DNA of 64,000 bases from Candidatus Omnitrophica bacterium UBA6253 (lineage in GTDB: Bacteria > Omnitrophota > Gorgyraeia > Gygaellales > Profunditerraquicolaceae), in NCBI GenBank assembly GCA_002441245.1, contig DJVP01000008.1:234540-298539 (forward strand), given 5' to 3'. Numbering within the stretch: the stretch's first letter is position 1; each line of letters begins with the position of its first letter. Below, in pieces: positions 26,196 to 64,000 of this stretch. A program made the translations under genes and the position numbers. The notes under the pieces were generated by a model. That model was not told the DNA's origin and searched no databases. It was given only the letters and a program-made list of their open reading frames with translations.

Positions 26196-26196
26196 A

Positions 26197-39020: not shown

Positions 39021-39593
39021 AAGCAAAAGAGATTTTATTATGCCAGGGAGTCAAGATTAATTCCGCAGCATGGAGCGTTGCATGTAATATGCAGAGGAAA
39101 TAATAAGAGGAAGGTGTTCATAAAGGAAAATGACTATGAATATTATTACCATTGTCTTGTTAAATTGAAGAAAGAAGAAGGGGTAAAGATTTATCATTAT
39201 TGTTTGATGCCTAATCATCCACACCTTTTGGTTGGGGTTGAGGAGGGAAGTAACCTTTCGCATTTTATGTAAAGAGTAAATGGGAAATATGTATATTATT
39301 ATAAGAAGCGACATAAGTACATAGGCCACCTTTGGCAAGATAGATTTAAGAGCAGGATAGCAGATGATGAGGGATATTTAGCTCAATGTGGAAAATATAT
39401 AGAGCTTAACCCGGTAAGAGCCAAATTAGTAGATTTTCCAGAAGAGTATAATTTTTCAAGCTATTGCCATTATGCTTTTGGAACGAAAGACGTGCTTATA
39501 GATGACAATCCTCTATTTCTGTTTTTAGATGAAGATCCTCTTAAAAGATCTGTCATTTATAGAGAAATAATCCGCGCAGAAATGATGTTGTAA
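39021..39593 (+). pseudogene. IS200-like / REP-associated tyrosine transposase (RAYT, COG1943-like) pseudogene with in-frame TAA and no canonical start
   Basis: One frame reads ...ARESRLIPQHGALHVICRGNNKRKVF...YHYCLMPNHPHLLV (HUH motif)...SHFM-TAA(39270-39272)-RVNGKYVYYYKKRHKYIGHLWQDRFKSRIADDEGYLAQCGKYIELNPVRAKLV.... This matches the RAYT pattern (PQHxxxRGNNRQ, HxHLL, WQxRF, YIxxNPV). No in-frame ATG lies upstream of the conserved N-terminus. Confidence 0.65.
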
Positions 39594-49400: not shown

Positions 49401-52400
49401 GCTGGCTTACTTCAGAGTATGCCTCTTATCCGGCAATTACCGGTTTGTCTTCTTTAGCCGGCGCATCCGCCGGTAATACTTTTGCCCGCGACGGTTATCA
49501 AGCTAATTTGTGGGCAAGCGCATTAGTCCCTGCTACATTGACCTTAATGGCAAAAATAAGTTCTAATATGGATGCTGCAAAGGTTAACCCTATTGAGTCC
49601 GGGCAGGCACCGGCATTCTGGAAGACGCTTGTTAATCGGGTTAATCCAGCTGGTAAATTCGAGAGGTTAACTGTTGATGGCAAGTTAGGCGGTTATAAGT
49701 GGGGACTTAATTTGAAGGGTACAGTTCCTGTGACAGCCGTCGGCCTTTCTTTGTTAGTAGAAAATGTTCCCCTGCCAAAAGAATATAATGCATGGAGAAC
49801 CGTTGCCAGCACTACTTTAAGGACAATTGCTTTAATACATGTTGGTTTAGGGCTTGAAGGAAAGCGCGGCGGAAGCAGCGGTTTAAGCGCAGCCTGGTAC
49901 AGGATGAAGGTAAATGGCGCTCCAGACGCTTTCCTTAGGAAGGCATCTTGGGCCAAGGGGACATGGGATTGGTCAGGAGTAGCCTCTAACGCCAGCGTAT
50001 TGGGGTCAGCAGGAGCGCTGGCATGGCTGATGAATTCAAAGAGCATTTCTGAAAACACAAAAACAAGTTTGATAGTTGCCTCAATTGCGGCATTGGCATT
50101 AGGAATGGGTGGGTATAAACAATCTTTTAAAAGCCTGGTAAAGCCAATCTGGACTGATAATATCATAGCTAAAAATGGCAGGATTTTGAAATTGAATGAA
50201 GCTGGTAAACCAGTGCGCACAGAGTTAACTGCTTCCGCTTTCTCAAGATTTTTATATTCTAACCCTGTTGCAAAAGTAGGGTTGAGCAGGGGTGCTGTAT
50301 GGGGAGGGATTTCTACTTATGCAGTATTGGGACCGGATAAATTACCAGTAGTAGGCTTTGAAAAGAAGCATATTGTTGTTGCTTTGATGGCTACAGCATT
50401 GCTTGGGCCTGGAATAAAACCCGGCCTGGCACAATTGGGGCGCGCCTACAATTTGTTAAAAGGAGAGACAACTTTTGAGACTGTTAATGGCAAGCTTGTT
50501 ATTAAAACAGCAGGGCCCGGAGTTCTCGCATATGATATAGCTAAAACCGCTTTACCAACCATACCTTCTATTGCTATAGGTATGGCGGCTATGCCTGATT
50601 TACAAAACCTGGTGCATTCCTTAAGCGACACTTCTTTTAACAACTTATTGAAATCCACATTTAACCTGGATGATGTAAAACAGCAATATATCCAGCTTGG
50701 CTGCGGCACGGAAGCTGATTTTCAGAATAAATCGTTTACCCAGGTTCAGGCTGAGATGATGGTAAAACAGATTGAGGTTCAAAAAGCCGCCTCTTCTAAT
50801 AAGGATGAGATTGATAAGTTAGAGGATTCCAGAAAATATTATTCAGGAGTTGTTGAGAGAGGCGAGACAGGTTGGAATAGCGCTTTTATGTGGCAATTAA
50901 GGGCTAATTCTGCTAATGAAGGCGCAAAGGTAGCTCTTTGGTTTGGGCCTTCCCTGTATTTTATCAAGCCTTTCCTTGAGGTAGGGCTACGCCGTATACC
51001 CGTAGTTGGGGATATGCAGGCTTTTATGGGTGAAGGAATGGGCAAAAAAGGCATGGGTGATAGCCTGACCTGGTTTAAAACCGATAGCAAACTAGGCAAT
51101 GTAATTCATGGGACGATTGGAAGAATTGAAAGTATCATCATGGAAGAGCAGGTCCGTGAAAACGTATTTGATACTTTCTTTAAAATGCCTCTTAAACAGA
51201 GCGGGTTTGAACCCGCCAGCCCAACCGATACAAAAAGGTACGCGTTTCAACAGCAATTATTTGAGAATCTTCAGGAATCAAATGAACGTTCAGGCGCTCT
51301 GAGTATTAGCGCAATGAATACCAGGGTAATAAATGTCATGATTTCGCAGGGCGCTACCTTAATGGTCGCTCCTGAGAGCAGTGTTTCAAACGGCGCCGAA
51401 ATCGATGCAATAAATCAGGATTTTAAAAATGGCAATTCCGCTCAGGCGCTCCAGAGATTATCGCAATTACCGGAAGGTTCTTCAGTGCGCATTCATGTAA
51501 CCACTGGCAATGGATTTCTGCCTGTAGGCTTATATGAATTTAAGGTCGAAAATGAGGCAGAATGGGCGCAGCCGTTGCAGATACGTGCGCAGGCAGAAAC
51601 ATTTCAGCAGCAATTAGTGGCCGGACAGATTTCTGCTTTAGAGCTTGCCCAGATTGCCGAAGGCGCAACTGCGGTGACCGGAAATTCTGTCGGCAATATC
51701 GCTCCCAGTATTAACCGGGATGCCGCACGTTATACCTTGGCGCAGGCAATTAGTGCAGATGCAGTTCCGTTACTGGTTGATCAACAGCAGCCAGGAAAGA
51801 TTATCTTTACCGATTCAAATAACCAGCAGAATACTGTAACTGTTTCCGCGCAGAACCTGATGCCGTTTATCCAGGAAAGACGTGCTTATGATACGAATTT
51901 TGATGCAGGCGTACGCCAGGCGCACCAGCAGTACCGCGCTCAAGTAATATTCCCCGCACAGGCAACAGCCCCTGTTTCTAACTTATTTAACTTTGTCAAT
52001 ACCAATTCAACTATCGCTACTGTGCCAAGCCAGAACTTAAATAATCAGAGATTGGATACCTTAAGGTTAAATACTCTGGATGCCTCAGAACGTTTTTATA
52101 ACTTACATTCCCAGATGATTGCAACCAATGATTGGTTAATGGAATCCGATTTACACCGCTCCGGCAGGGTTTTTGGTTCATTTACCGCAGAGGGAAAAAT
52201 AGACAAAGCGGCAAAGAAGCTGGCATATGAAAATCAATTGCACAAGTTTGGCGCTGATATAACTTCTGGTACACAAAAGGCCCTGGTAGCTGTGCAGGCC
52301 TTATTAGGGTTTGGCCTGGGCGCGCAAATTAAGCAGCAGGTGACTCAGGAAAAACGCCTTACCGCAGAGGCTGGTTTGCGCGAGATAGTAAAGAAATTGG

Positions 52401-55400
52401 ATTCTCTCAAGGCTGCAAAAGGCAACTTGCCGGCATACCGGACGGCTTTGGTGGATACTTTTGGGTTTACCGCTGAGAATGTCAAGAAGCTCTCAGATGA
52501 AGCCTTGCAAATGCAGTATGATTTTCATTTAATGGCGCTTAAAGCCCAGCATAAACAGATAAAGTCCTTTAACAAGAAACTCGTTAGCTCGAGGGGTAAT
52601 TTACGCAGCTTATTAGTGGCGGATTTCCGTCAGAATCAGGCTAATCTTCAGGAGCTATCGACCTTATTGGCTGAGGCCGGAGTAAGCCAGGATATTTTAG
52701 GGGCAGATTTCTCAGCTGGAATAAGCAAGGATTATAAAGGACGTAATGCCCGTGTATTTGTTAGTGAAAATAGCGTAGTAAAAGTATTTGATCTCTCATC
52801 TTTGCCTGAGGATGCGCGGGATAGGGCCAGGATAAAGATAGAAGATCGTTATCGCAGGGGTTTAAATGGTTTATCAGTTGCAGGAGCTGTTACCAGATCA
52901 GGGAATAATCTAATTATTACACAGGCCAGGGTTACTACCGTAGCAGAAGAAATGATGAAGTTGCATGCTGCCGGCAAACTCGCAGAAATGAACACGCTTC
53001 TTGAAAAGCTGGCCCAGCTTGGCCAGGATCTTTCAGCGCAGGGGTATCAGTGGTCTCCTGCAACTTCCGGTAACATGCTGGATAACTTAGGCCTGGATGA
53101 TCAGGGTAATATCACCGTAGTTGATTTATCAGCCATACAAACAACAGCTAATCCGGATGATGCGCAGGCAATATGGGTAGCGCGGCTTAAGCAGGATGCG
53201 GGAACATATTCAACAGAAAGGCTGTCCGCCTCCAAGGCTACTATTAATGCTTTTGATACCTATTTTAATACTCACAGTGCAATGGTTACCCGCGGAGAAC
53301 AATTGCTGGCTCCATTTGTTAAAGGCAATGTTCGGATAGATAGCAGTAATATTGTCGGCCTTAACCCGGCATTGACTACCGGAGTTGAGAATGTAGTTAA
53401 TGCTGCGGTTAAGAAAGTTTTAGGCAAAGATAGCGATTTGCGCGGCCTGCAGGTTAACTTTATGCCTTTTGCAGGAGATTTACAATTTGAGTGGGATGTT
53501 AATGCTGATGGCGGGCTCACGCTATCGCTTAACCCTGCTGTCTTGGCCAACCCCGAGTTATTAGAGGCGGTTGTGGAGCATGCTTTTGATAAACGTTCTA
53601 ACAGGCAGTTTGCTGCGGATAGGGCCCTTGATTTTATGACCAGATTAAGGCATGTCTCCGGCGGCATTATTACAGCTCCTTTAATTAACCTGAACTCCTG
53701 GCTTACTACAAGCCAAGTCAACCGTCTGACTTTCACAGAAATTGGACAAAGAGCCGGTGATTTGGCGCAGGCGTTAGGATTACCAATAGATCTTTTGACT
53801 CGTCGATTACCGCATACCGCAGTAGGCGCAATCGTTAATGCGTTTGATATTAATAACCATGCCAGGCAGTCTTTAAATACGCAGTTCAGGTTAAGAGCTG
53901 AAGCGGCCTTAGCTCCAATGATCAGGTTCTGGGCAGGGACAAACTGGGGCCAAAGGTTTGATACTATGGATTATCGCGCTCAAGGTATCTCGCAGCACGC
54001 CATTGATCCGTTTATTTTATCGCAAAAAACACTCGGTGAGATCTTTGAGCTTGATGCTAATGGACAGGTAATTGGCATTAAGAATATTGATGCGCGTGCG
54101 CAAAGCTTTACCGCTGCCAGCCAGAAAGCTGTCGCAGTAAGATTGCCGGCATTATTTGAAGAAACCAAGAAGAGCTTGCTTAAGAATGCCCAGCAGCTTG
54201 GATTATCTACTGAAGCCCAAACTAAGCTTAGGGCCTTAACTATTGAACAGGTATTAGGCGCTAATAAAGGCGACTGGGCAAATAAGGTGCAGATTCGCAT
54301 AGCTTTACCGGAAGAATTGGATCATATGGGATTTGGCGAAACTAAACAGGGGAGCCGCCAGATCTGGGTGAATTCGCGCTTCATTGACCTTGAAACAGGA
54401 GAAATCAGCAAGGAGCTTCTTAATGATGTATTAGCCCATGAAGCAACCCATGTTATTGCTGATTTGATAGCATCAGAACTTACCGCGCAAACAGGCAGTC
54501 CTGTTAATACGGGTATTGCAATCGGACAGGAAGGTAATGAATCGCTTGTAGACAAGATTGCCGGGAACAAGCGTAGTAATTTAGGTAATCATTTATATAT
54601 AAATCTGGGGAGGCTTAGGAATATTGGCAATGCCGGTGGATTTGGTAATGTAGGTGGCGGAACCCCTGGTTTAGGTGATGGCGTTGGTGGTACAGCAGGT
54701 GGAGTTGGAGTAAATAGCGGAGCATCTATTCCCGAAGTAGAGCCTCCTGAAATCGAGATTCCTAAGGTAGAACCGACTAAAGTAGAAGAGCCGGCTCCTT
54801 CTCCTGTTGTCGAAGAAACTCTATCTTCCAGTTCATCTAAATTAAATAAGGCTATAGCCGCTCTTGCTGCCAGCTTAATCAAGGCCAAGAATTATGTTAC
54901 TTCGTTCCATCCTGTGGATAGATTGGTTAACTTAGTAAAGGGCATAAGAAACAGTATCAGTAATGCCCTGAATGCCAGGTTCGAACGCATTAAGCAGCAG
55001 GCCGCAGAAACACCAGCCGTTTTAGTTCCAGTAGAGCAGCTGGAGATCAAAAAGGTTGATAATCAAGAAGCGGTAGAAGTACTTTCTATCGCCGACATAC
55101 ATGGGTCTCCTATTGAAGGCCAGAGCTTAACAACAGGGATTATTGATGCAAACGGCTTGACTCCCAAGTACAAGGTTGAGGTGGAAGATGTAACTTATTA
55201 TTTATCCGCTCCTTATGACCTTGGAGGTGGCCGTATTGCAGTGTTAGCGTTCTTGCGCGAAGGGGATAGATTTGTTGCCAGGACCTATTATAGAAGTAAT
55301 TCCGCGGTGGAATTCAGGTATCTGCCGAATTATACATATAACGAGGAACTCAAGGAGATCGTCCACTATGATAAAGGGTTCGGGGAAGACAGCTTAGGAG

Positions 55401-58400
55401 TTCCATACCAGGTACAGGAAGCACTCGCGAAAGTAAAAGAGCAGGAAAAACTTATCAATATTGAAGATTCTGCTATCAGGGATCTTGTGTTTGCCGGCAC
55501 AGCACGGCAGAAAATTGAAGGCGGAACATATGTTGGCTTTATGGGGCGCGCGAAAATAGAGGTTCCCGGCAATTTCCATACCGGACTCCGTAATAAGAGA
55601 GGTTCTGAAGAAAAAGTCTCTCCTCACCAGGTAGGCTTTGATAATCCTGAAGACGCTCCTGATTATAGCCGCCTGCTTACAACCTATACGACCAATACTA
55701 ATACATATGGTGATATTACTGTTGAAGTCTTCCCCTCAAAGAACGGGCTTCATAAGTATTCGATATTCCGTGATTCACTTGGCAGGATATGGTTTGGGCA
55801 TGTGGAGAATGGCGCCAAGATTAACTCTATGGGGATTAGAGGCAATTGGCTTGATTTAGGTGATTTAAATACTCCGGCTTTTGAATATGCGCAGCAGGCA
55901 GACGGTTATGGTAACTTTGATCTTAGTAAAGGGAACTATGTGGATATGTTTAAGAATTATTTAAGCAAGATCCCTGTTATCCAGGAATACATGAAGGTTC
56001 GTATGGGCGCCTCTTCACCGGTGGTTCATGAACAAAGAAGCGAGATAATCGTTAATGCCCTGAAGGCTTTCTTAGGTGCGTCAAGCGTTAATACGATTGG
56101 CGGCCAAGGCATAGGCAAGGCCCCAGGCAACTCTTCTTCACCCATTAAGGCAATAGCCAGATTTATGGTGCTACCTTTATTGGCTATGGGGTTATCTTTA
56201 GCCGCGCCTTCTTTAACAATAGCGCAAAGCTACCAGCCTGCTAAGCAGGGTGTTGTAGCTGAGGCCAAGAGTATCAATGTTAAGCAGTTCAAAGGGATTA
56301 AGATAGCTGGCTTTAGTGCTGAAGATTCGACTGCTATTGTTAAGTCGTTAAAAGAGATTAATGATAGGGCTCCGTTGTTCTTGCAGTTAGCCAGGAGAGC
56401 AGGCCTTGAGTTCGTCAGCATTAAGGGCCATGGCCTCCAGTTTACTGCCGGGCAATTAGAAGGCAGCCAGGTAAAATTGTATGATGGCAATTGGCAGTTG
56501 AACAAAGATTTAACAGGCTTTATAAGCCATGAAGTTGGGCATCTTGTATATAATAAACTTAACTCTAACGGCCAGTTAGGCGAGGCATTAAAGGCTATAG
56601 AGAAGAAATACGGAGTTGATGAGGCAACTACCGGCGTTGATAGCGCAGGCCGCAAGTTTATGATTGTTTTTGGAGGCAAAAACGGCGTTTATGGCGGTTC
56701 ATATGAATTCATGAATAAATATAATCCAATACCGTTTGGCAGCGTAAATACAGATGAATTGGCAGCTGAAATATTCCGTATGCGCGTTAAGCCCGTTGCC
56801 GGTTTTGAAGAGAATTCATTCTTACAGGAATTAAATGGTGTGATAGAAGAGTATCTAAAAGGCCCAAGCGGCTCATCTTCTCCTATTCAGTTGCCTGGAG
56901 AAGACAGGCAAGGCGAGCCCGTACGCGGGCAATCTCCTGCGCTTCCGCTGGTTCCCGGGCAAATACCTGTTCCCGGCGTTAATGGCGGTGCCTTAGGAGC
57001 GGTTATTGGAGGCCTAAGTATGACGACAGCCGTCGCCAGTAGCCCTATTGACTTAGCTGTCCCTGTGCTTGCTACAGGCAGGGTTAATTTAGGTAATATA
57101 AGGGCGCAAGTCCCGATTATAGATGGAACAGTAACTGCCCATGGCCCGCCTGCTGTTAACACGACAATCTCTCTCTCAAAGATTGGTCGCGAAATAAATG
57201 CGAGAGGCAAATCAGGTATATTAGTAGTTGTATCAAGTAGTGTAGTAAAGGCAGATGCCCAGAGTGCAACCTTCGGAAACGAAGAAAGAGGGCAGGGTGC
57301 AGAAGGTGCATCCAGTAATATAGGTAATGCGGCTGTCAAGGCCGTACGCAGCACTGATTCCAGGGTTATGCCTGGCAATAGTATAGGTAATAAGATTGCC
57401 AGAATAATCAGCAGAATCACATATGCCCAGAGTGCAACCTCCAGAAATGGAGAAAGAAGGCAGGATACGAAAGACGTATCCGGAAATAAAGCTAATACGG
57501 CTGTCAAGGCCGTACGCAGCATTGTTCCGCAGGCTGCTGATGTAGCAGCTGATTCAGTTATCTCAAACGAAATTGATGCAGAAAATGCATCGGTTCCGAC
57601 CTTCCCGAGGTCTGTATCTGTTTCCTCAAGCCCAGTAGAAACAAATGGTAATGGCAGGACGTTATTTGGCCGTTTATCCGCCTTCCTTAGTAATGGCCGC
57701 TCCGCAAAGAAGGTTTTAACTGTTGAAGAGATATTCCATCTTTTGACCCGCTTACAGGCTCAAAAGCTATATCGTAATCAGCAAAAGCGCGGGCTTGATG
57801 TTCCTGAAAAAGACAATTATGACATGTCCAGCCAGCAGATAAAGGTTTCCGTATCTGACCGTTTAAAAGAGCAATTAGAAGACTATTCAGATTCCAGGTT
57901 AGGAAAGTGGTTTAATGCCGCTAATTTATCCGATACAGAATTAAGCAGTATGGACATTGAGGATGTAGAGACATTATTGGATAGAGGTTTAAGGAGAGCT
58001 GCTGAGCTTATTACTGAACTGGGCAGGGTAAGTGAGTTTAAGGTTCAGGAAGGCGGCTTAACTGCGGCGGATGTAGAGCGTATAATTGAAACTAAGATAG
58101 GCGGTATTATTGATGCTAAAATAGCTCCGATAGCTAAATTAGCGCAGGAAGCAGATTTAAAAGCAACCGATGCACGTAAGCGCACCGGGGCAGAAGATTG
58201 CTTGATTGGTGCGATTACCGACAAAGAGGTTAGAGAGGAATCTGACCGTCGTCTTCGTATTGAAGCAGGCGTAGAGTTTGGCCCATACGTAGTTAAGGAT
58301 CTCTATACCGGCTTACAGATTATTAACCAGGTTTATGATGAATTTATTGCTAAGTATGAAAAAGAAGGAAACCAGAAGAAAGCTGATGCTTTAAGGGATG

Positions 58401-61400
58401 AGAAATTAGCTGCTATAAAGGCAAATGAAACTATGGCTGTTGATATACTCAACAAGTATGCCGGCAGGATTAGTATTTTAGCTCCTCTTGATAATAATCA
58501 ATACCACGTTTTACAGGTAATGAGCTATGATGCTGAAACAGGAGAGATCCTTTATGTTGAAGATAACGGACAGGGTAATTCTACCGGGTATGGTAAGATT
58601 GTTTTGGATAAGATAGCAAAGATTAATGGTGAATATGTATTTATTGTGCAGGAAAGCGTGGTTAAAGAGGCAGAATTAAAGGATAATTTATTAAGCGATG
58701 AAGAGCAGAAAGAAATTAAGAATGTTGGTGGTACTGGTTCAACTGGCAGCGGCTCTTCAAATGGCGGCTCATCTGGCGGAGCGCAGGGTGGAACAGGTTC
58801 TGGTGCAGCAGGAGCTGGCCAGGGTGGCTCAAGCCCTGCCGGAGCAGGTTCTGGAATAAATGGCCTAGTTGATGATGATGACTATCTGGATAACAGGCTT
58901 TCTAGAAGTTCGACTTTATATATAGGTAGCACAGATCCTTTGTCAGCTCAGAATGTTCAGCCTGAATCCAGGGCTCCTCCGGCTGGAGAACAGGCATATC
59001 CTTCAACTTTAACTAATTCATCCATAACCGATGCTTCTATCCAGAAATCATCCCAGGAAGTTTATAGCCAGAGCGAAACAGTTTTAGGCCTGGTTTCCGC
59101 CGCAGGTAACAACACCTCTACTACTTTAGATAGCCTTACAGAGGAGCAAGAAGCCGCAGTAAGGCTACTTAACCGTTTTATCCGTTCTCCGATAATGGAT
59201 AATTTAGCCCGCCGTGAAGAAGAAGATTATATGGTTGTTATTCTGGATAAACTGCTCAAGGCTATTAAGACCCGTGGCTTGGATCTTCATGGCCGTTATT
59301 TCCGCGCCGCACGCTTAATTGCGTATAGATTTGGGCTTCCTTATTCCTCTATGATACAGTTAGCCACCGCGTTCATCTTGTTAAATGAGACTGATTCCTT
59401 TATTGAGGCATTAAAAGAAGAGCAATCCATTAGAGCGGAATTAGCCGCGGTAAATACCAAGGGTACGACCGAAGCAGTTGAGGCAGTAAGCGCGGAGCCA
59501 GAGAAAACAGCAGTTAATTTTGATTTATTAGCCAATATCCGTACTATATTAGCTTCCGTAAGCAAATTAATAAAAGAAAATATAAATCTTCTTCCCGGGA
59601 ATGTCCAACCGGCAAGCTCTCCAGTTAAGAAACTCGATGTAGTGTTTTATTCTTCTGAAAGAGCTGATCGGAATGGCACATTCTCTAACTTATTGGATCT
59701 TGCCCGAGATTTAGGGCAGAGAGTTTATGACCTGGCATTCAGGCTGCAACAATTTACTAATGATCGGCCGGAAGACTTAATCGTAGTTGACGAACGCGGA
59801 AGCCGCTTGGAGATTATCTCTTCTGAAGAGGAAATCTCAGAGCATGGAGTAATTTTAATTAGCGGCAGCTCAGCAGATAATGACGAAGCAACCCAGGAAA
59901 ATATCGCAAATTCTTTTGCAAAGGTATTCCCGCAGGCAAACAGAATTCTTGCTCCGAGAGTCCCTGCTGGGGCAAGGTCGGTATTTGATGCTGACGCTGA
60001 GGCTTTAGTATCCAGCCAATCTAATGATCAAAATGCAGGGTCATTAGCTGTTCAGGATGCAACAACTGTTCAGGCAGAAAAAGAAGCTGTCAATGTAATT
60101 GGTGCTGTTGATAAAGAAGTGAGCGTAAATAACCGCGAAGTTCATCAGGCAGAGTCGAAGATTGTTAAAGAGATTGTTAAAGCAGGCAATATATATCAGG
60201 AAGCTAAACTGGCTTTAGCAAAAGTATTAGGTAAGGTATTACATGTCGTATCGGAAAAGGTCTTGGGAGCTATCGCATCCTTAAAGCAGGTTGCTTCATT
60301 TATTAATGGCAGTGCGCATAAGGATGGAATTCCGTTTACAACTACGCTTCCTGTTAACGTGGCCAATGCCGTAGTAGATTTTACTTTTGTGATTAAAGCC
60401 GCTAATAACAGATTTGCTCAGCAAGGCCTGGTAGCAGCATTAAAGAATTTGGAAGTTTCTTCGCCTGTTGAAGCTGAAAGAGAAGCGCATGTAGAGCTGT
60501 TGAAGAGAAAATCTGAAGGTATCGGTACTGCCATTAGCATCAAGGCTCCTCCGGTTTATTCTCCTGTCAAGTTTAACGCGGGGTCAGTTAAACGTGTGGG
60601 AATAACCAAAGGAGGAACAAATGGTAATCATACAGAAAATTCAGGAAATGAAAGAAGCAATCGCAGAGTTGGAGAATCAGTACAATATAAGACGGTTACA
60701 GGAAATGAGAGAAGCAGCAATAGTGGAATTAATGAATACGAAAAACGTCTTAGCTACGAAACCGAATTAAAGGGCCGTCTTTATACATTTAATATAGGTA
60801 AGGCCGACCAGGCTAAACTTGGCGTACATCCTGTGCGCGCCCCGCCTTACGCAGCCTTCGTAGCTAAGCTGCACAATTCCGCATTATCCAGAACCTTCAA
60901 TTCAAATAATCCATTAAATTTAAACCAGCCGCATTCTCTTTCCGTGGCAGGAGAGTCGTTTGCGGCTAATGTTGTTAAGGGCGGTGCAAGAACCCTCCTC
61001 CGGGGATTGACCCTTCTTGTTACCGCCCTTACAACAATCATAGGAGGTGCACTATGTGCCCTATCAAGATTGATGAGATCAGGATTGACCACATCGTTGA
61101 CTTCTCTAAGGACCACACTACCTTTGCAGCCGCGCGTGAAAACAGCAGCGGGCATCTCAGGATATTCCTCGTTAATGATGTTACCGGTACGGTTTATGCC
61201 CGTAACGGCCGCGCTGACAGTTGGGAAGAGCTCCTCGGCGTTAAATGCGAGCTTGTCCGTATCAAGATTACTGAAGCAAGAGGTTTTGGCGTTCCAGTCT
61301 ATAGAATTAACGCAGAACACAATTAATGAGGAGATCCTTGCCTCTTCTAGCCCCGTCAGAGACTATGCCAATAAGAATTATCTTCGCTCCGGGGCTAGAC

Positions 61401-64000
61401 GTAATTATAGGTATGCTTATAAAACTGAAGCGAGTGTATTCGTTAAAGTTGTACAAGTATTGGGAATAGCGGTTATTGCCCTGTTGTTGTTCTTTATGGG
61501 TTACAAGTATGTTAGCTATATATCCAGCCAGGACAAAATAGCCCTTAAGACTTTTGATGTTATGCAGGCACATACAAAACAAGACAGGAGCATAAGAGAG
61601 TTTGCAAGGGAGTTCTTCCGCTTGTTTGACAATATCGAGTTTTCCGATGGGTTGGAGTTCGGATTGATTTCAAGCCTGGTGGAGCCGTTAGAGAAGCTAA
61701 AGATGAACAGGAGCCTGGTAATAAAAGAAGCCAATGCTCATAGCATAGATCCTAATCTGCTTGCGGCTATCCTGACAGCCGAAAGGCTTGATATGAACCC
61801 ATTGAAGCGCGCCGCAGATTTTACTATTTTTGTCCGGTCGAAGACTTCAGGCGGCTGGGGCCAGGTAAGGCCTGAAACAGTCAGGTTCCTTATAAGCAAT
61901 GGAAGGATTGATAAAAAGTACGCGGCGTATAGCAGCTACAAGCTCGCTGAGGAAATAAAGAATAATGATCAATTCAATGTAATGTGCGTTGCGGCATATT
62001 TGAAGTTCTTGGTTGATGAGGCAGAAAAGATCCAGGGATCAGGCGACCGTTATGAGTTTATGAAGAAGGTGGCCGCAGGCTATACCGCAGACTGGCGCAG
62101 GATGAAAGAGGGTTTATTACAGCCTCCTTTCGATGCTAAAGAATATAAAGAAAAAACAGGAATTGATTCCAGCCGGGCGCAGGCCGCGGTTTATGCTGAG
62201 CTTGTTGCGGCCTTATATAGGCTAATTGAGAAAAATGACTTAACCGGTACTTCCAGCCCGGTTACAAAATCCGAAGATCCACGCATTAATAATTTAAGAA
62301 GGGATTTGAATTCTGACAACAGGTTAATCCGTACCCGCGCAATTAATAATATAAGAGATTACAATTTAGCGAATATCTTCGTGGAAGAACTGCTTGCTTT
62401 AATCCGTGAGCAGGAGGAAGCGAGCAGGTATAATTTAACCAGCAGGGAAGGCAAGGAATGGTTCCATGTTAAGATGTTCGCGATTCAGGCGCTGGTCAAT
62501 TTAGATGAGAAGGTGATAGGGCGCGCTAAGTTTGAAGAAGTTTTAGGGGTTATTAACAGCCAGCATGGCATTGGAAGCGAAGCCGGATGCGTAAAGGTGA
62601 TGGCGAAAGGCGCGTATCAGTTACTGACTGAAGCCAGGAATGGTACTTCCAGCCCGGTTGCAGCGCAAATTTTGATTGTAGATGACGAAGAGATGCAGCG
62701 TGATTTAGTCAGGATGGTTCTTGAGATGGCAGGTTATAAGGTAGAAGAAGCGGTAAATGGAAAAGAAGGTTTAGAGAAATTTAAGGCAGGAAAGTTTGAC
62801 TTAGTGGTGACGGATAATCGTATGCCTGAGATGTGCGGTACGGTTTTAATCGGGGAATTGCTCAAGATTAATCCTGAATTGCCGATTATATTTATGAGCG
62901 GCACAGAGATAGTAACTGAAACTCAACGCATAAAGAATGTCAGCAAGCCGTATAATATTGGCGTATTTACTAAGAAAGTTGCGGAATTATTAGCGTTGGC
63001 TCAATCTTCCTCTAGCCCTGTGGGCGCCGCGGTTACTACGGTTTTGAAATGGCTGGTTTTAAGGAGCGAACAGACCTCTGGCGTAATTAATAGCAGAGAG
63101 TTAGCGCTGTATGCCGGTATATCCCAGGATGAGGTCGCGAGGCTGGTTAAGCAGGTTAATGATTCAGGCAAGGTCAGGTTAATCTCTAAGGACGCAACGA
63201 ATTGGAGAATAGAGGTGGTTTCCTCCAGCCCGATCTCCCTTAAGAATTCCGGAGCAGAGGAGTTACGCGCGGCGCTAAAGAATTGGGCGGCAAGCAATAA
63301 ATTTGAATTTCTCTTCCAGGATACAGTTTGGCAATTAACTAATCCCGGCATACTTCGTAAGATAGAAAAGGCCGGTGAATTAGCCGGGTTTATTTTATAC
63401 TTTGCAAGCAATTATATATCTATAAAGTCGTTTATTGTTGCCCCGGGCATGAGGGGCCAGGGGATAGGCACAGAGGTTATGAATTTAATTGTCAGCGAGA
63501 ATCCTAATAAGGACATTGTTACTGATCCTTTGAGCCAGGCAGCGGTCAATTTCTATAAGAAGCTTGGATTTAAAGAAGATTTTGGCGGTAATTACGTAAG
63601 GCCTGCCGGAGTAACCTCCAGCCCGGCAGTTGCTCCTGATTTTAAGCATAAATTAACAGAGGTATTAGCCGCGTTAGGGATTAACCAGGAATCAGTGGTC
63701 AATAGCTTTGACAGGGTGATGTTAAGAGGTGAAAGAAACTATTATCCGGATGGGTTATTTAAAGATAATGCAGCGTATTTACAGTGGGTATCAGAGGCAG
63801 TGAGTTTTCTTGCCAGAGACGGCAGGCATTTGCCTATATTGAGGATGCTTATTTCATCGCTTTACCCGGAATTTGATCTATCAAAAATTCCCGGACAAAA
63901 TATGTATGCCTGCCCTGCTAACGCTTTACTTGGCTATATCTTTATGGCCCTTAAGTTTGCACCACGTAATATTGCCGCGCTTGCCTACTATAATGAGAAT
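40499..64000 (+). CDS. giant multi-domain protein, 3'-partial: one open reading frame of at least 7,834 codons running off the window end
   Basis: ATG at 40499 sits directly after an in-frame TAA (40493-40495), with an AGGT SD-like element upstream. I checked frame 2 (positions = 2 mod 3) by hand at the start, 40861, 41101, 41941, 45541, 47881, 54421, 56461-56521, 60541-61380, 61741, 62641, 63361 and 63901-64000 and found no stop. The ORF track lists no frame-2 ORF on the + strand anywhere in 40.5-64 kb, which it would if a stop existed. Only short antisense or off-frame ORFs occur there. Confidence 0.8.
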   Translation, partial: MDKLQKQTEGQFEQPETKPEFKSSFKAWIRVVAFIVVAVFLPEQVAQAVEYDWRILWNKPVTGSIAPSYLKDLSGIDTALAIRNILKDIANKPITAIKISSNLTIGLDKPLEMSNQKIDEIFQWLKGRPCGSKALYDYLNYTGLKVTEQDIAILALTIDILNDVVKPEGNPEVIKTSLYALSKTSEFFGQRLYSVKLDLNNLDKKIDLTPFIAHVNGDHYVLVTHISQDKVYFSDNHTEEFLPKEKFLNEFTGYALISKPMSVDLEISVSQAKAVLGSGRNPGRYSNSVNWSKWSKNMTTSILVNLGMNMVSSSLSGGWKNIPSKLYDNFGSSIVSGVKSMAVSYAVQSYVQGVAMENNWSSDKAALVGSALGGFAAGLTTSIGAMSGKPSLKLSNWTGGALGNAFLGGVTTAISQATATRVYLSLYDKNDTRTNATAQIGSLAAGLLMMQASKSLVPGAFGIDSSSLTKSKAPFNLGDFWKNNRTTIFSGVGGAALGAALYSNNRVAGALIGAGVGAGAGYLVSNRAVVLDTIKNNAMPMLIGGVAGAAMGAFTGSDGSERAISALAGFGLGATSGLLIKKYDFSVMGGVSGALAGYMYGGDETKDRLRSAALGFVGGTAVGAFVNIIDDMEKRPYMEKGLKSHLTEAGKTSPDGKEFLGYAEGSDKLKEYANREYKFEQGTSYGDIMKYITVKSGAILLEEGFRSMKYDKVKKEGESRGLKDTDLDDYIGDEMGKYEIYYSGLGAGYEILGTTSYSSKDKWYTMLGQGLLQGGVSVGVAMLRNKLVNNYGIDPVTASNATMWVSAAGRALTDTLIHGDSFYYNSDEKTGELKERPGFGGYIQQGTNKALNFGWGAKDKMSDVITYNNYVTQIVNFGQRAANSANGGFAVVYGQHLADSFHYSTVENSLGLINNSYIVAKIITGQAYERVRGNMSELASGAKSDTEVDFTLKLKLFGKKIFEDGELLSKAPQQENLKTKIDGIVFNKDEGYRLITNIDKPGEGIYYYETQRESNSSPLPEKNRALTNTDVYAISVPIPGIEDKAYGKLYKGVFEVDYLGQDSNGRASFLGLAGAPGSKVTLDLNTAVLSPALTAKIQPLIAGNHEGKITITTTRDNNITLSFGKAGADNKLVAENTATISRAELAEFKQALAPWRDYRGAGFSEIVAQDKKVSHVNSPTGFLTNGLMVNSSPLELNNVKINGTLSHQIESAKIEMWQSLDNSNKWNIHPLTNLLTVATISGGVSLLPEKADSLYFYKQADRSRFGILLNVQNGIGVNSFFSAANSQEAKVNKPNILDYKYNFFGEGAQSSLFGFNGLTQKSPFGYFAYNYQDSIKVKDELDLLAKEKEPAETPISGELTSTFIQTNGSFDKQTETFKVDNAMIMPGSTLQIELGQDQDGKWRATSLHEADKAKFSNFLTAQLPAKFEKAVKENKLTNYIVEIQRIKPGEYNVNFFKNSADREAIRQIGTNSPLVMKIDEADLNDLVKAGVPIGDNLLFNVQGTINYKRNNEGNYVSDIIYQQKNLEQPALVMPTKATSIEAKAAGVSGGEGVVNVKLFTFNQITYNAEKNSNTFSLYPLALLQGEGTLSSTYLNNMNKTPIDSVFFNIKSPSLAPEMGVIARVTRGTDDTIFHNRNLAPTPTSSGAATSTTQANESAIPTRAPLTDLNVIKTHSDAVIELGKGTNLQMLLGVTEINGVQVWQAQSMAGFIGNTITLQKDTSVVWGETLSYKGKEKDVFATFHIGEEKRDGKLVPIIDRVTSKINFERKDIAIGDKDVTLLGTLQQGKNRKVEQKFEKIKFGDREYGIKMQVNDGFLIKGAQSKFYIIGKGFQNEAKITTEDGRTFTLKAGKSAGISVFDETGKKQVGALTDKGIVFFEIDKIRASMQELAGFFEKSEASGADFDKARNIFGRARKAFNEGDYVNAIDALNKASKEATRQQNKNLMEQLRTQNLIPAGYSLDKDAQNGYKQLAAIVEEYKKNGGPSTVREQVKERLRRDISVLENEQRSLVASSADKTEVDLAARKIAKAKEALGLLESSDPQKTTQLTRRVKDLESAFVSQETKWRNELARNGDMPDQGIWAGIWGAVAVNRDDSIREERDRRAVDLTYARVALIGLTATGAKDLYDLASKINSELKMEDRGTARRHETEMSAVKVDANALSLIMNKKAVVEETFLIKDVGYVTRGYDEKGNPYEVLTELAALKYDGGRYAPKYAVKVIDLESGGHITVKQEAFGRTRVYNDQGGEIMGNVVAKTTQVKENDNVIGNMQKVVTPSGEIKFIFQSKDSSIGTQTVAAKEVIFEQSQVDRMSFNLPNGKELFVAADGKVMNGFEEYNAKNYEAADDVQENTYFRYGNRDMYSGVTFGHFSNSSDLKRDLEIALRSTGTGQISQDRLANVFGDAIETKYISRVNSLAVQAGLNTMDSSSPEYAAVYKRIQRIALGELYREPAVREYMSKTNLAPVAFVDDAITWGSTAKVGGGVGLVVGGTVVAVTGVGSAPGGGMAAAGLTTLGIVGSAAAITTGNALIYNGITGQNISSNILLGDFAVNLVTAGLASWAKVITVGTVAANATRAEIMTAKVLGYAKTAPTIGIITENVVNTGSILYSGEYMSPAGRLGIFATAGMGQYVFASKTAMTIMGVSSAVGIADTIIPLHQYIGVASNITGTVAAPYRGIVRAIGSYYDNPDAAPGWISRVYKNQAAEKGAWVSSFGSGVISSMGWFGVSAAQSFLQARSGSYLMQFTLRPHEPVMSIIHLASILNSDTSGNSKFTMMDGFELAGNFAGGFAGLKGVSLPKTGSLSQTGRINGLIDDLKASNSFFASAVDIAPKMYLGQVGFTIATSAVKSLAGSQSWSSIFNSLSGQTDSLWSSSIGFGVYAKAVVPQVKSIISKSALAKSPITSSLAIGGVSGGMATFIDYANHSISNFFSDKKDSSYSLTRGAIVFATAFLAGSALAYGRSKLASTGKASWLTSEYASYPAITGLSSLAGASAGNTFARDGYQANLWASALVPATLTLMAKISSNMDAAKVNPIESGQAPAFWKTLVNRVNPAGKFERLTVDGKLGGYKWGLNLKGTVPVTAVGLSLLVENVPLPKEYNAWRTVASTTLRTIALIHVGLGLEGKRGGSSGLSAAWYRMKVNGAPDAFLRKASWAKGTWDWSGVASNASVLGSAGALAWLMNSKSISENTKTSLIVASIAALALGMGGYKQSFKSLVKPIWTDNIIAKNGRILKLNEAGKPVRTELTASAFSRFLYSNPVAKVGLSRGAVWGGISTYAVLGPDKLPVVGFEKKHIVVALMATALLGPGIKPGLAQLGRAYNLLKGETTFETVNGKLVIKTAGPGVLAYDIAKTALPTIPSIAIGMAAMPDLQNLVHSLSDTSFNNLLKSTFNLDDVKQQYIQLGCGTEADFQNKSFTQVQAEMMVKQIEVQKAASSNKDEIDKLEDSRKYYSGVVERGETGWNSAFMWQLRANSANEGAKVALWFGPSLYFIKPFLEVGLRRIPVVGDMQAFMGEGMGKKGMGDSLTWFKTDSKLGNVIHGTIGRIESIIMEEQVRENVFDTFFKMPLKQSGFEPASPTDTKRYAFQQQLFENLQESNERSGALSISAMNTRVINVMISQGATLMVAPESSVSNGAEIDAINQDFKNGNSAQALQRLSQLPEGSSVRIHVTTGNGFLPVGLYEFKVENEAEWAQPLQIRAQAETFQQQLVAGQISALELAQIAEGATAVTGNSVGNIAPSINRDAARYTLAQAISADAVPLLVDQQQPGKIIFTDSNNQQNTVTVSAQNLMPFIQERRAYDTNFDAGVRQAHQQYRAQVIFPAQATAPVSNLFNFVNTNSTIATVPSQNLNNQRLDTLRLNTLDASERFYNLHSQMIATNDWLMESDLHRSGRVFGSFTAEGKIDKAAKKLAYENQLHKFGADITSGTQKALVAVQALLGFGLGAQIKQQVTQEKRLTAEAGLREIVKKLDSLKAAKGNLPAYRTALVDTFGFTAENVKKLSDEALQMQYDFHLMALKAQHKQIKSFNKKLVSSRGNLRSLLVADFRQNQANLQELSTLLAEAGVSQDILGADFSAGISKDYKGRNARVFVSENSVVKVFDLSSLPEDARDRARIKIEDRYRRGLNGLSVAGAVTRSGNNLIITQARVTTVAEEMMKLHAAGKLAEMNTLLEKLAQLGQDLSAQGYQWSPATSGNMLDNLGLDDQGNITVVDLSAIQTTANPDDAQAIWVARLKQDAGTYSTERLSASKATINAFDTYFNTHSAMVTRGEQLLAPFVKGNVRIDSSNIVGLNPALTTGVENVVNAAVKKVLGKDSDLRGLQVNFMPFAGDLQFEWDVNADGGLTLSLNPAVLANPELLEAVVEHAFDKRSNRQFAADRALDFMTRLRHVSGGIITAPLINLNSWLTTSQVNRLTFTEIGQRAGDLAQALGLPIDLLTRRLPHTAVGAIVNAFDINNHARQSLNTQFRLRAEAALAPMIRFWAGTNWGQRFDTMDYRAQGISQHAIDPFILSQKTLGEIFELDANGQVIGIKNIDARAQSFTAASQKAVAVRLPALFEETKKSLLKNAQQLGLSTEAQTKLRALTIEQVLGANKGDWANKVQIRIALPEELDHMGFGETKQGSRQIWVNSRFIDLETGEISKELLNDVLAHEATHVIADLIASELTAQTGSPVNTGIAIGQEGNESLVDKIAGNKRSNLGNHLYINLGRLRNIGNAGGFGNVGGGTPGLGDGVGGTAGGVGVNSGASIPEVEPPEIEIPKVEPTKVEEPAPSPVVEETLSSSSSKLNKAIAALAASLIKAKNYVTSFHPVDRLVNLVKGIRNSISNALNARFERIKQQAAETPAVLVPVEQLEIKKVDNQEAVEVLSIADIHGSPIEGQSLTTGIIDANGLTPKYKVEVEDVTYYLSAPYDLGGGRIAVLAFLREGDRFVARTYYRSNSAVEFRYLPNYTYNEELKEIVHYDKGFGEDSLGVPYQVQEALAKVKEQEKLINIEDSAIRDLVFAGTARQKIEGGTYVGFMGRAKIEVPGNFHTGLRNKRGSEEKVSPHQVGFDNPEDAPDYSRLLTTYTTNTNTYGDITVEVFPSKNGLHKYSIFRDSLGRIWFGHVENGAKINSMGIRGNWLDLGDLNTPAFEYAQQADGYGNFDLSKGNYVDMFKNYLSKIPVIQEYMKVRMGASSPVVHEQRSEIIVNALKAFLGASSVNTIGGQGIGKAPGNSSSPIKAIARFMVLPLLAMGLSLAAPSLTIAQSYQPAKQGVVAEAKSINVKQFKGIKIAGFSAEDSTAIVKSLKEINDRAPLFLQLARRAGLEFVSIKGHGLQFTAGQLEGSQVKLYDGNWQLNKDLTGFISHEVGHLVYNKLNSNGQLGEALKAIEKKYGVDEATTGVDSAGRKFMIVFGGKNGVYGGSYEFMNKYNPIPFGSVNTDELAAEIFRMRVKPVAGFEENSFLQELNGVIEEYLKGPSGSSSPIQLPGEDRQGEPVRGQSPALPLVPGQIPVPGVNGGALGAVIGGLSMTTAVASSPIDLAVPVLATGRVNLGNIRAQVPIIDGTVTAHGPPAVNTTISLSKIGREINARGKSGILVVVSSSVVKADAQSATFGNEERGQGAEGASSNIGNAAVKAVRSTDSRVMPGNSIGNKIARIISRITYAQSATSRNGERRQDTKDVSGNKANTAVKAVRSIVPQAADVAADSVISNEIDAENASVPTFPRSVSVSSSPVETNGNGRTLFGRLSAFLSNGRSAKKVLTVEEIFHLLTRLQAQKLYRNQQKRGLDVPEKDNYDMSSQQIKVSVSDRLKEQLEDYSDSRLGKWFNAANLSDTELSSMDIEDVETLLDRGLRRAAELITELGRVSEFKVQEGGLTAADVERIIETKIGGIIDAKIAPIAKLAQEADLKATDARKRTGAEDCLIGAITDKEVREESDRRLRIEAGVEFGPYVVKDLYTGLQIINQVYDEFIAKYEKEGNQKKADALRDEKLAAIKANETMAVDILNKYAGRISILAPLDNNQYHVLQVMSYDAETGEILYVEDNGQGNSTGYGKIVLDKIAKINGEYVFIVQESVVKEAELKDNLLSDEEQKEIKNVGGTGSTGSGSSNGGSSGGAQGGTGSGAAGAGQGGSSPAGAGSGINGLVDDDDYLDNRLSRSSTLYIGSTDPLSAQNVQPESRAPPAGEQAYPSTLTNSSITDASIQKSSQEVYSQSETVLGLVSAAGNNTSTTLDSLTEEQEAAVRLLNRFIRSPIMDNLARREEEDYMVVILDKLLKAIKTRGLDLHGRYFRAARLIAYRFGLPYSSMIQLATAFILLNETDSFIEALKEEQSIRAELAAVNTKGTTEAVEAVSAEPEKTAVNFDLLANIRTILASVSKLIKENINLLPGNVQPASSPVKKLDVVFYSSERADRNGTFSNLLDLARDLGQRVYDLAFRLQQFTNDRPEDLIVVDERGSRLEIISSEEEISEHGVILISGSSADNDEATQENIANSFAKVFPQANRILAPRVPAGARSVFDADAEALVSSQSNDQNAGSLAVQDATTVQAEKEAVNVIGAVDKEVSVNNREVHQAESKIVKEIVKAGNIYQEAKLALAKVLGKVLHVVSEKVLGAIASLKQVASFINGSAHKDGIPFTTTLPVNVANAVVDFTFVIKAANNRFAQQGLVAALKNLEVSSPVEAEREAHVELLKRKSEGIGTAISIKAPPVYSPVKFNAGSVKRVGITKGGTNGNHTENSGNERSNRRVGESVQYKTVTGNERSSNSGINEYEKRLSYETELKGRLYTFNIGKADQAKLGVHPVRAPPYAAFVAKLHNSALSRTFNSNNPLNLNQPHSLSVAGESFAANVVKGGARTLLRGLTLLVTALTTIIGGALCALSRLMRSGLTTSLTSLRTTLPLQPRVKTAAGISGYSSLMMLPVRFMPVTAALTVGKSSSALNASLSVSRLLKQEVLAFQSIELTQNTINEEILASSSPVRDYANKNYLRSGARRNYRYAYKTEASVFVKVVQVLGIAVIALLLFFMGYKYVSYISSQDKIALKTFDVMQAHTKQDRSIREFAREFFRLFDNIEFSDGLEFGLISSLVEPLEKLKMNRSLVIKEANAHSIDPNLLAAILTAERLDMNPLKRAADFTIFVRSKTSGGWGQVRPETVRFLISNGRIDKKYAAYSSYKLAEEIKNNDQFNVMCVAAYLKFLVDEAEKIQGSGDRYEFMKKVAAGYTADWRRMKEGLLQPPFDAKEYKEKTGIDSSRAQAAVYAELVAALYRLIEKNDLTGTSSPVTKSEDPRINNLRRDLNSDNRLIRTRAINNIRDYNLANIFVEELLALIREQEEASRYNLTSREGKEWFHVKMFAIQALVNLDEKVIGRAKFEEVLGVINSQHGIGSEAGCVKVMAKGAYQLLTEARNGTSSPVAAQILIVDDEEMQRDLVRMVLEMAGYKVEEAVNGKEGLEKFKAGKFDLVVTDNRMPEMCGTVLIGELLKINPELPIIFMSGTEIVTETQRIKNVSKPYNIGVFTKKVAELLALAQSSSSPVGAAVTTVLKWLVLRSEQTSGVINSRELALYAGISQDEVARLVKQVNDSGKVRLISKDATNWRIEVVSSSPISLKNSGAEELRAALKNWAASNKFEFLFQDTVWQLTNPGILRKIEKAGELAGFILYFASNYISIKSFIVAPGMRGQGIGTEVMNLIVSENPNKDIVTDPLSQAAVNFYKKLGFKEDFGGNYVRPAGVTSSPAVAPDFKHKLTEVLAALGINQESVVNSFDRVMLRGERNYYPDGLFKDNAAYLQWVSEAVSFLARDGRHLPILRMLISSLYPEFDLSKIPGQNMYACPANALLGYIFMALKFAPRNIAALAYYNEN
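40800..41280 (+). other. papain-like (C39-like) cysteine peptidase-type domain inside the giant ORF
   Basis: QWLKGRPCGSKALYDYL has Gln 7 residues before Cys (Cys codon 40886-40888). ...AHVNGDHYVLVTHISQDKVYFSDN has the His codon at 41153-41155 followed by Asp. The order Cys, His, Asp is as in C39/transglutaminase-like folds. Confidence 0.5.
54437..54451 (+). other. HExxH motif (HEATH) inside the giant ORF, candidate zinc-metallopeptidase site
   Basis: cat gaa gca acc cat, in frame 2. Context: NDVLAHEATHVIADLIAS. Confidence 0.4.
56528..56542 (+). other. second HExxH motif (HEVGH) inside the giant ORF
   Basis: cat gaa gtt ggg cat, in frame 2. Context: LTGFISHEVGHLVYNKL. Confidence 0.4.
57256..57521 (+). 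repeat. intragenic imperfect direct repeat, two copies of ~100 nt with 169-nt period
   Basis: gcccagagtgcaacct and cggctgtcaaggccgtacgcagca recur at 57256/57425 and 57329/57498. The minus-strand antisense ORF 56887-57522 shows the same duplication. Confidence 0.6.
62669..62998 (+). other. CheY-like receiver (REC) domain embedded in the giant ORF
   Basis: ILIVDDEEMQRDLVRMVLEMAGYKVEEAVNGKEGLEKFKAGKFDLVVTDNRMPEMCGTVLIGELLKINPELPIIFMSGTE...SKPYNIG. All canonical positions are present: the DD pair, the phospho-acceptor Asp, Thr and Lys. Confidence 0.7.
63250..63600 (+). other. GNAT-type N-acetyltransferase domain embedded in the giant ORF
   Basis: FIVAPGMRGQGIGTEVMNLIV is motif A (R-G-x-G-I-G). 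AAVNFYKKLGFKED is motif B. Confidence 0.55.

Follow-up and report, generated by a model that had tools for sequence, protein, structure and literature searches.

The giant genes of Omnitrophota are among the largest known, and their products may work as single proteins or as sets of several. West-Roberts et al. 2023 (10.1101/2023.11.21.568195) propose that these giants are cleaved; they note that no cleavage points are known and that this gap blocks both structure prediction and functional dissection. The C39 giants described there and in a second preprint (10.64898/2026.06.07.730766) have an open reading frame (ORF) of many thousand codons, an N-terminal transmembrane (TM) segment and C39 peptidase domain, a mix of enzymatic and regulatory domains including REC and GNAT, and adjoining Tad pilus genes. 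The DNA analyzed here, referred to as the window, is a stretch of 64,000 nucleotides from Candidatus Omnitrophica bacterium UBA6253 (contig DJVP01000008.1), and its giant ORF shares all of these features. By these features the locus belongs with the Omnitrophota-type giants that have a C39 domain at the N-terminus; its closest database homolog is annotated Candidatus Omnitrophica, and the metagenome-assembled genome (MAG) that holds a related locus, L001, is labeled Planctomycetales. The C-terminal tail of the ORF is punctuated by a short motif, Ser-Ser-Pro followed by an aliphatic residue (SSP), which marks the units that genomes gain, lose and exchange. Judged from sequence, this motif offers a first concrete candidate for the cleavage sites whose existence in these giant proteins has long been suspected. 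The two giant-gene preprints do not describe the SSP adaptor, its nucleotide core or its Asp-Gly-Gly (DGG) counterpart in sister giants, and junction motif, cassette structure and cleavage points are absent from both (10.1101/2023.11.21.568195; 10.64898/2026.06.07.730766). In the literature library searched, no paper links Omnitrophota with polyproteins. The motif is short, statistically unambiguous and conserved across genomes. It provides cut sites open to test, a rule by which giant ORFs can be split into modules before they are annotated or their structures predicted, and a way to follow how strains come to differ in their sets of modules.

By analogy of function, the locus appears to resemble most closely the MARTX toxins and the viral polyproteins, which share with it arrays of modules, short junction sites and a cysteine protease in cis. 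MARTX toxins of Vibrio are very large, and their unrelated effector modules form an array that varies by strain. A cysteine protease in cis frees these modules by cutting at short linker sites, which are Leu-X and otherwise little conserved. The tail array of the window likewise varies between genomes (window, L001, L017 and L019). The window ORF differs in having no C80 CPD domain or RTX repeats by Pfam, in protease fold, motif and phylum, and in that cleavage is here inferred. The polyproteins of picorna-, flavi- and nidoviruses yield several proteins from one ORF through a short conserved junction motif that is read by a protease of the same ORF, and papain-like viral proteases typically cut after GG, a site type that resembles the DGG of the sister lineage. 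Unlike these, the window carries a cellular gene, cassette-like module swapping and a nucleotide-level signature at its junctions.

Three further systems share some features with the locus. Processing of double-glycine leaders by C39 peptidases (bacteriocins and peptidase-containing ATP-binding cassette transporters, PCAT) is similar in its in-cis C39 fold with Cys and His and in the small residue at position -1, found at 65 of 75 junctions. It differs in that Gly occupies -2 at only 13 of 75 junctions, that no column from -10 to -3 is conserved and no amphipathic leader lies upstream, and that the conserved S-S-P-aliphatic stands on the other side of the presumed cut. Polymorphic toxins (CdiA with VENN, Rhs with PxxxxDPxGL) also use a short motif to part a constant region from exchangeable C-terminal modules, and a Tse3-type module of the tail resembles an effector of type VI secretion systems (T6SS). 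The window, however, has many serial junctions instead of one, and no VENN, Rhs or HINT pre-toxin domain was found in its ORF by Pfam. Integron cassettes and shufflons are exchangeable units with a short conserved DNA core. Here the core TCCAGCCC bounds units at 24 distal junctions and is missing from proximal ones; the units lie in frame within one ORF, and the core of 8-9 nt lacks attC-like inverted repeats.

The junction motif of the giant ORF

The giant frame is stop-free from 40496, with its ATG at 40499, and comprises at least 7,834 codons (Table 1). A Pfam scan of all 7,833 aa recovers only C39, REC and GNAT together with a sub-threshold Gly-zipper, and the ORF has no internal protein repeats. 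The N-terminal TM helix has its Kyte-Doolittle peak at aa 23-42. In the C39 domain, a candidate in-cis protease from its sequence, Cys130 lies in GRPCGSKAL and His219 and Asp235 are plausible companions. Two HExxH motifs occur, at aa 4647 and aa 5344, and no tie was found between either and processing. The original prediction, made from the letters of the sequence, had named the C39-like domain, the two HExxH motifs, REC and GNAT, and these are confirmed; its 'HEAT-like' and 'HTH-like' domains find weak support or none.

The ORF contains SSP 17 times and SSP[VIA] 14 times. All 14 copies of the latter lie at aa 5172-7707 (nt 56012-63617), where composition shuffling (n=2,000) predicts 0.19 (maximum 3); the expectation for the whole ORF is 0.37. 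The excess over shuffled composition that had been put forward as a check therefore holds, 14 against 0.19. An unbiased scan of 3-mers and 4-mers of the tail places SSP, SSPV, SSSP and SSPI far above all others, and SSPV, SSSP and SSPI are the sole strongly enriched 4-mers (P ~1e-15 to 1e-7). The same scan finds nothing comparably enriched in the first 5,160 residues, and none of the 28 further ORFs in the window (11,488 aa in total) has SSP[VIA]. All eleven examples listed in the original prediction are present within a few bases of the positions given there, and three further copies had been missed (GASSPV at 56012, GGSSPA at 58829 and EVSSPV at 60458). Its isolated copies near 43540 and 47770, like another at 44069, read SSPL, SSPE and SSPL and do not match the full motif. 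An origin of the motif as a DNA repeat was rejected, as codons vary among copies and internal protein repeats are lacking.

Over 75 non-redundant junctions the only constrained positions besides SSP are -1 and +3. The former is small in 65 (S 33, T 13, G 10, A 9), and the latter is I (25), V (23), A (17), L (6) or M (2) in 73. The extended consensus that had been looked for in the flanking residues is thus confined to these two, with no other conserved position from -10 to +12, and the adaptor, as read from the aligned sequences, is the five residues [S/T/G/A]-S-S-P-[I/V/A/L].

The peptide itself is under purifying selection, as shown by codon comparison, because SSP is invariant while its flanks diverge. 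At the eight junctions common to the window and L001, none of the 24 SSP codons differs non-synonymously and seven differences are synonymous; in the flanks of 8 residues on either side, 63 of 128 codons differ non-synonymously (Fisher P 1.2e-6 vs SSP). Indels abut the motif. Between the window and L019, SSP is kept at both ends of modules that are just 25-38% identical. A plain flexible linker would not hold S-S-P-[IVAL] across modules so divergent, and the simple modular linkers offered as one explanation in the original prediction are insufficient as stated.

Module exchange at the junctions

Four related giant ORFs, stop-free over 19-21 kb, were recovered: L001, which is 84-86% identical to the window ORF, and L017, L018 and L019, which are three independent metagenome loci. 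A search of other giant proteins, proposed earlier as a check, found the motif in all four, in the distal part only. SSP is the top enriched 3-mer in each of them, with 12 copies in L001, 17 vs 1.2 expected in L017, 12 vs 1.5 in L018 and 16 vs 1.1 in L019. The motif recurs in the proteins P0001, P0009, P0019, P0022, P0024, P0028 and P0034, and in further relatives from a library of 1.8 billion proteins it stands beside other partner modules; that of P0022, for example, is YkuD-like as judged by eye from a GCINL motif.

Module-against-module BLAST aligns the SSP-bounded pieces of different loci over their full length, and the differences among the window, L001, L017 and L019 are insertions, deletions and replacements of whole modules at SSP. 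The window has eight modules in common with L001 and L017 and unrelated ones past junction 10. L019 has the REC, HTH and GNAT modules of the window with two extra modules, GGDEF and one of no assigned type, between REC and HTH. L017 and L001, which are 97-98% identical, differ by a 199-aa cassette pair. 'Empty' tandem junctions occur in L017 and L018 (SSPVSASPI and SSPVTSSPI); the motifs that flank the 41-aa segment 1 of the window are adjacent in L017 (SSPVSASPI) and, in degenerate form, in L001 (SSLVSASPI). P0001 lacks the 247-aa signal-peptide and HExxH module, which is missing exactly between two SSP motifs. These alignments show, at the level of sequence, that autonomous and exchangeable cassettes are joined by the motif, which serves as a lineage-specific adaptor. 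The claim that it falls at module boundaries, made for the last 2 kb, is strongly supported and extends to the whole tail and to the four related giant genes.

The first junction coincides with the end of homologous proteins in about a dozen other MAGs. P0002, P0003, P0004 and P0006, like the proteins at most of the 16 loci taken from GTDB genomes, stop 2-22 aa past IQEY; the window has SSPV at +8 after IQEY, where its relatives stop, and at least 2,660 further residues beyond this first motif. The ORF can be divided into a core and an appended tail because homologs end where the first motif of the window sits. The core would be a membrane-anchored protein with an N-terminal C39 peptidase that ends in the natural C-terminal domain of its relatives. 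No Pfam family matches the core-ending domain (...YYRSNS...YVDMFxNYLSKIPVIQEY), which is widespread as the C-terminal domain of large proteins in MAGs labeled as candidate phyla radiation (CPR; Saccharibacteria, Dojkabacteria, Yanofskybacteria and others), Gammaproteobacteria and Planctomycetes. Fusion of conserved downstream neighbors was rejected as the origin of the tail: tblastn of the tail modules against 15 loci that stop at the core end found no downstream homologs.

The distal, variable junctions carry a second layer of conservation. In all five loci together, 24 of them read TCC AGC CCN and share TCCAGCCC, and 18 of the 24 are exactly TCCAGCCCG, a 9-mer for which codon usage predicts ~0.017 per junction. 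The codon before them always has C at position 2 (xCx). TCCAGCCC(G) lies at 62252, 62648, 63224 and 63617 in the window and at 16949, 17150, 17858 and 18467 in L001, and also occurs in L017, L018 and L019; the junction 9-mer is found nowhere else in the window on either strand. Proximal junctions have varied codons from both Ser boxes (AGY and TCN). Distal modules of the window and L019 are 77, 70 and 50% identical, vs 25-38% for proximal ones; in the common distal modules 43% of identical residues differ in codon, while the junction Ser codons (TCC AGC) are almost invariant. This constancy points to a constraint at the DNA or RNA level, or to repeated re-creation of junctions by cassette exchange. 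The indel between L001 and L017 is flanked by TCCAGCCCGATA(G/C)ATTTGAAG-like repeats with ambiguous breakpoints. Among the 20 of 28 upstream ORFs searched with Pfam (strict E-value cut-offs, 1e-5 and 1e-8), there is no recombinase.

Cleavage site or hinge

Proteolytic processing of a polyprotein, one of the explanations raised in the original prediction, is the best-supported reading, although it remains an inference. We hold with moderate confidence, from sequence features, that SSP is a protease recognition site and the tail a polyprotein. The reading is favored because the first junction is a natural C-terminus, because Tat (twin-arginine) or Sec signals and TM anchors follow junctions, because selection acts strictly on five residues, and because a sister lineage has another motif. 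The tail would consist of at least 14 gene-sized cassettes fused in frame, with the adaptor replacing stop codon, intergenic spacer and start codon, so that it would read as an operon written as one polyprotein. A dedicated endopeptidase would recognize the adaptor and cut the tail into separate proteins. The C39 domain would be the obvious candidate in cis, with a putative link to the SSP motif. Freed modules with a Tat or Sec signal or a TM anchor (the muramidase and the HExxH protein) could be exported, and the REC, HTH and GNAT modules would stay in the cytoplasm or be delivered elsewhere. On this reading TCCAGCCC at distal junctions would reflect a DNA-level process that installs or exchanges cassettes, and older junctions would drift synonymously. 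If cleavage occurs, the locus would represent a polyprotein system that is encoded in a bacterial chromosome and exchanges its cassettes.

Tat signals act solely at an N-terminus. Of the four Tat-like RRxF[LIV] motifs, three begin 6-16 aa past SSP, two in P0001 (locus L021) and one in L019 (SSPV-K-MDRRGFLK); the corresponding Pfam TAT_signal hits are sub-threshold (E 0.001-0.005 in the two P0001 modules, 0.35 for L019). The 45 aa past SSP are enriched in hydrophobic segments (16 of 57 vs 15% coverage, P 0.01). No hydrophobic segment separates the muramidase from the REC and GNAT domains of the same chain, and there is none from aa 7000 to aa 7835.

Two sister giants, P0016 (6,788 aa; DNA in L020, GCA_022013145.1 JAKLQW010000082.1) and P0011, have the window-type N-terminus, the C39 domain and several of the tail modules and are devoid of SSP[VIA]. 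The unbiased scan picks out DGG in P0016, with 19 copies vs 1.8 expected (P 7e-14; aa 2137-6610), and P0011 has 8 vs 1.9. Five of about ten boundaries of internal homology blocks between P0016 and P0011 lie within 8 aa of DGG, and two DGG sites precede TM segments. The codons of DGG in P0016 are biased to GAY GGC GGN, with GGC for the first Gly in 13 of 19. C39 and other papain-like processing proteases classically cut at GG sites, and by analogy DGG may be the counterpart of the SSP junction motif, possibly of the double-glycine type. That DGG occupies the same site as SSP was rejected, as the alignments are not clean: it lies once inside a conserved block and once ~20 aa upstream of SSP. Because a sister giant without SSP carries DGG, the evidence points to a lineage-specific recognition motif and not to a generic linker.

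Several points weigh against cleavage. The motif is unlike the canonical double-glycine site of C39 (G at -2 in 13 of 75). Pro beside the scissile bond is unfavorable for most proteases. One junction in P0001 has no proline (NSSI). Module ends can be compared with protein termini only at the boundary of core and tail, no stand-alone homologs of modules having been found. Two sets of neighboring modules make up architectures that ordinarily function within a single polypeptide, REC-[SSP]-coiled coil-GGDEF (L019) and REC-[SSP]-small HTH-like module (window); in L019 (15173-16315) the REC domain is joined via SSPV to a coiled-coil GGDEF diguanylate cyclase (Pfam E 7e-30), a PleD/WspR-like pair split by the motif and thus relevant to whether all junctions are cut. 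Finally, the Tat and Sec signals could be relics of recently captured genes.

The two REC architectures fit a less likely alternative, in which SSP[IVAL] is an uncleaved universal adaptor, a short hinge left by the joining of cassettes at the DNA level through the core TCCAGCCC. The tail would then be one membrane-tethered multi-domain protein, and the hinge would be kept as short, helix-breaking and protease-resistant. It is consistent with the 24 distal junctions of five loci that share the core after a codon with C at position 2, with junction Ser codons that stay TCC AGC where 43% of identical residues change codon, and with REC-GGDEF and REC-HTH pairs that straddle SSP like ordinary two-domain regulators; S-P is also a common helix N-cap. 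The proximal junctions, however, encode SSP with quite different codons, including switches between AGY and TCN, which argues that the peptide itself is selected, and a generic hinge would allow many sequences and lengths. Tat signals cannot work internally, and without a hydrophobic segment at aa 7000-7835 the muramidase would share a compartment with domains that depend on acetyl-CoA and phosphoryl groups. Even uncleaved, the motif would be an unusual sequence-defined adaptor for building multi-domain giants.

A dual-coded adaptor is a further proposal, speculative and rather unlikely. Its 8-9-nt core (TCCAGCCC) would direct the in-frame capture and exchange of gene cassettes at the end of the giant gene (a 'protein-level integron'), and the S-S-P and aliphatic residue translated from it would later mark each captured protein for release by cleavage, with lineage-specific adaptor and protease pairs (SSP here, DGG in P0016). 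If true, bacteria would have a previously undescribed means of assembling effector arsenals, varying them and expressing them from one ORF.

Modification of the linkers by O-glycosylation or proline-directed Ser phosphorylation, for example to protect them or to regulate modules, is improbable. The motif is shaped like the short O-glycosylation sequons of bacteria, Ser followed by an aliphatic residue (that of Bacteroidetes is D-S/T-A/I/L/V/M/T), just five residues are constrained, and a PMT_2 glycosyltransferase of the GT-C type is encoded at 15232-17376. That gene, however, is 23 kb distant in a cluster that looks unrelated, and the motif flanks cytoplasmic-type domains (REC and GNAT) and is missing from the other proteins of the window. 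Modification alone would leave unexplained the motif at the stop of homologs, the module exchange and the Tat signals that follow.

Translational separation, whether through initiation within the ORF at the codon that follows SSP or through stop-free release and restart, with the conserved nucleotides acting in mRNA, is very improbable. The residue after SSP is I, V, L or M at 56 of 75 junctions, near-cognates of ATG, GTG and TTG; MDRRGFLK of L019 resembles a native N-terminus 2 aa past the motif, and distal junctions are conserved at the nucleotide level. Against this stand Ala (GCN), which cannot initiate, at 17 of 75 junctions, the lack of a Shine-Dalgarno-like or other conserved upstream sequence and of a nucleotide motif at proximal junctions, and the fact that no bacterial StopGo mechanism is known. 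Chance, or a by-product of Ser/Pro-rich composition, has nothing in its favor beyond a modest Ser content (8%) and is already refuted by the count of 14 vs 0.19 by shuffle, its replication in four other loci and the conservation of the motif while its flanks diverge.

Tail modules and gene neighborhood

Cutting the tail of the window at SSP yields 14 mutually unrelated pieces of 41-401 aa (Table 1). Module sizes match those of stand-alone proteins (REC 119-121 aa, GNAT 131-144 aa); word-indexed searches with segments 9-10 and with the HTH and GNAT modules found no stand-alone homologs. The REC module is 77% identical, end to end, to module m10 of L019. The GNAT match of the window is partial (Acetyltransf_1 model positions 29-116), and that of L019 covers the full Pfam model. 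The Tse3-like module has Pfam T6SS_Tse3_cat E 0.086 in the window and 3.4e-7 in its L019 homolog, and PDB 3wa5 is matched with E 0.005; the L019 homolog has a Tat-type signal (MDRRGFLK) 5 aa past SSPV in place of the TM anchor. A PDB sequence search with the HExxH module gave nothing useful, and Pfam at relaxed thresholds returned only weak hints for ten modules. A single-sequence AlphaFold2 model of aa 7240-7834 was discarded as too poor for the linkers (predicted local distance difference test, pLDDT, 41).

Table 1. Coordinates of the giant ORF, its domains, junctions and modules, and neighboring genes in the window.
Feature	Position	Strand	Remarks
Giant ORF	40499..64000	+	runs off window end; core aa 1-5171, cassette tail from aa 5172
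C39-like cysteine peptidase domain	40886..41278	+	Pfam PF03412 E 6.5e-11; directly after N-terminal TM helix
Conserved core-ending domain (...YVDMFKNYLSKIPVIQEY)	55022..56011	+	residues 4842-5171
Junction 1, GA-SSPV (TCTTCACCG)	56012..56023	+	at stop-codon position of homologs
Junction 2, NS-SSPI	56135..56146	+	Sec-type signal peptide at +3 (KAIARFMVLPLLAMGLSLAAP)
Signal peptide and HExxH module, 247 aa	56135..56875	+	HEVGH at 56528-56542
Junction 3, GS-SSPI	56876..56887	+	kept in L001, L017
Junction 4, VA-SSPI	57038..57049	+	kept in L001, L017, P0022, P0028; NSSI in P0001
Junction 5, VS-SSPV	57626..57637	+	
Junction 6, GG-SSPA	58829..58840	+	
Junction 7, PA-SSPV	59615..59626	+	AGCTCTCCA in window, AGTTCACCG in L001: three synonymous changes
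Junction 8, EV-SSPV	60458..60469	+	
Junction 9, AS-SSPV	61346..61357	+	
Tse3-like peptidoglycan muramidase module	61346..62251	+	TM anchor 61436-61495
Junction 10, GT-SSPV, TCCAGCCCG	62252..62263	+	non-homologous modules downstream, window vs L001/L017
Junction 11, GT-SSPV, TCCAGCCCG	62648..62659	+	REC profile begins 4 aa later
REC module, 121 aa	62648..63010	+	Pfam PF00072 E 1.4e-18; size of stand-alone CheY-like protein
Junction 12, SS-SSPV (TCTAGCCCT)	63011..63022	+	L019: GGDEF and one further module inserted here
71-aa module, weak HTH hits	63011..63223	+	70% identical to L019 m13 over all 71 aa
Junction 13, VS-SSPI, TCCAGCCCG	63224..63235	+	
GNAT acetyltransferase module, 131 aa	63224..63616	+	Pfam PF00583 E 7.9e-9; homologous to L019 m14
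Junction 14, VT-SSPA, TCCAGCCCG	63617..63628	+	next module leaves window
Tad/Flp pilus cluster genes	22665-28356 and 37214-38919		PpiC-type peptidyl-prolyl isomerase (PPIase), RcpC/CpaB, secretin with TonB_C domain, TadZ-like ParA-TadA ATPase fusion, two TadB/C-like T2SSF
64-aa ORF with PNHPHLLV	39078-39272	+	looks like truncated IS200/RAYT-type Y1 transposase; in 1.5-kb gap between Tad genes and giant gene

In L021 (P0001; aa 1247-1640) two consecutive modules open with a near-identical Tat signal, VLNRRSFL(K/Q)LSGLVAGGLATGMIKPTDLLAAKK, shortly past SSP. The likeness of the two sequences indicates a probable recent cassette duplication inside the giant ORF. A second short element, [AGS]PP, occurs four times in the window ORF, in the tail only (0.74 expected): HGPPA at 57143, RAPPA at 58973, KAPPV at 60545 and RAPPY at 60839. 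This xAPP/GPPA element is the best-conserved feature of homologous modules in many relatives.

The Tad/Flp pilus cluster lies directly upstream of the giant gene. Several ORFs between the Tad genes, at 28794-37174, have no Pfam match. The region from 472 to 17376 encodes four B12-binding radical SAM proteins, one radical SAM-only protein and one radical SAM/SPASM protein, together with a polysaccharide deacetylase, two GDSL lipases and the PMT_2 (GT-C) glycosyltransferase, and looks like a modification or biosynthesis cluster.

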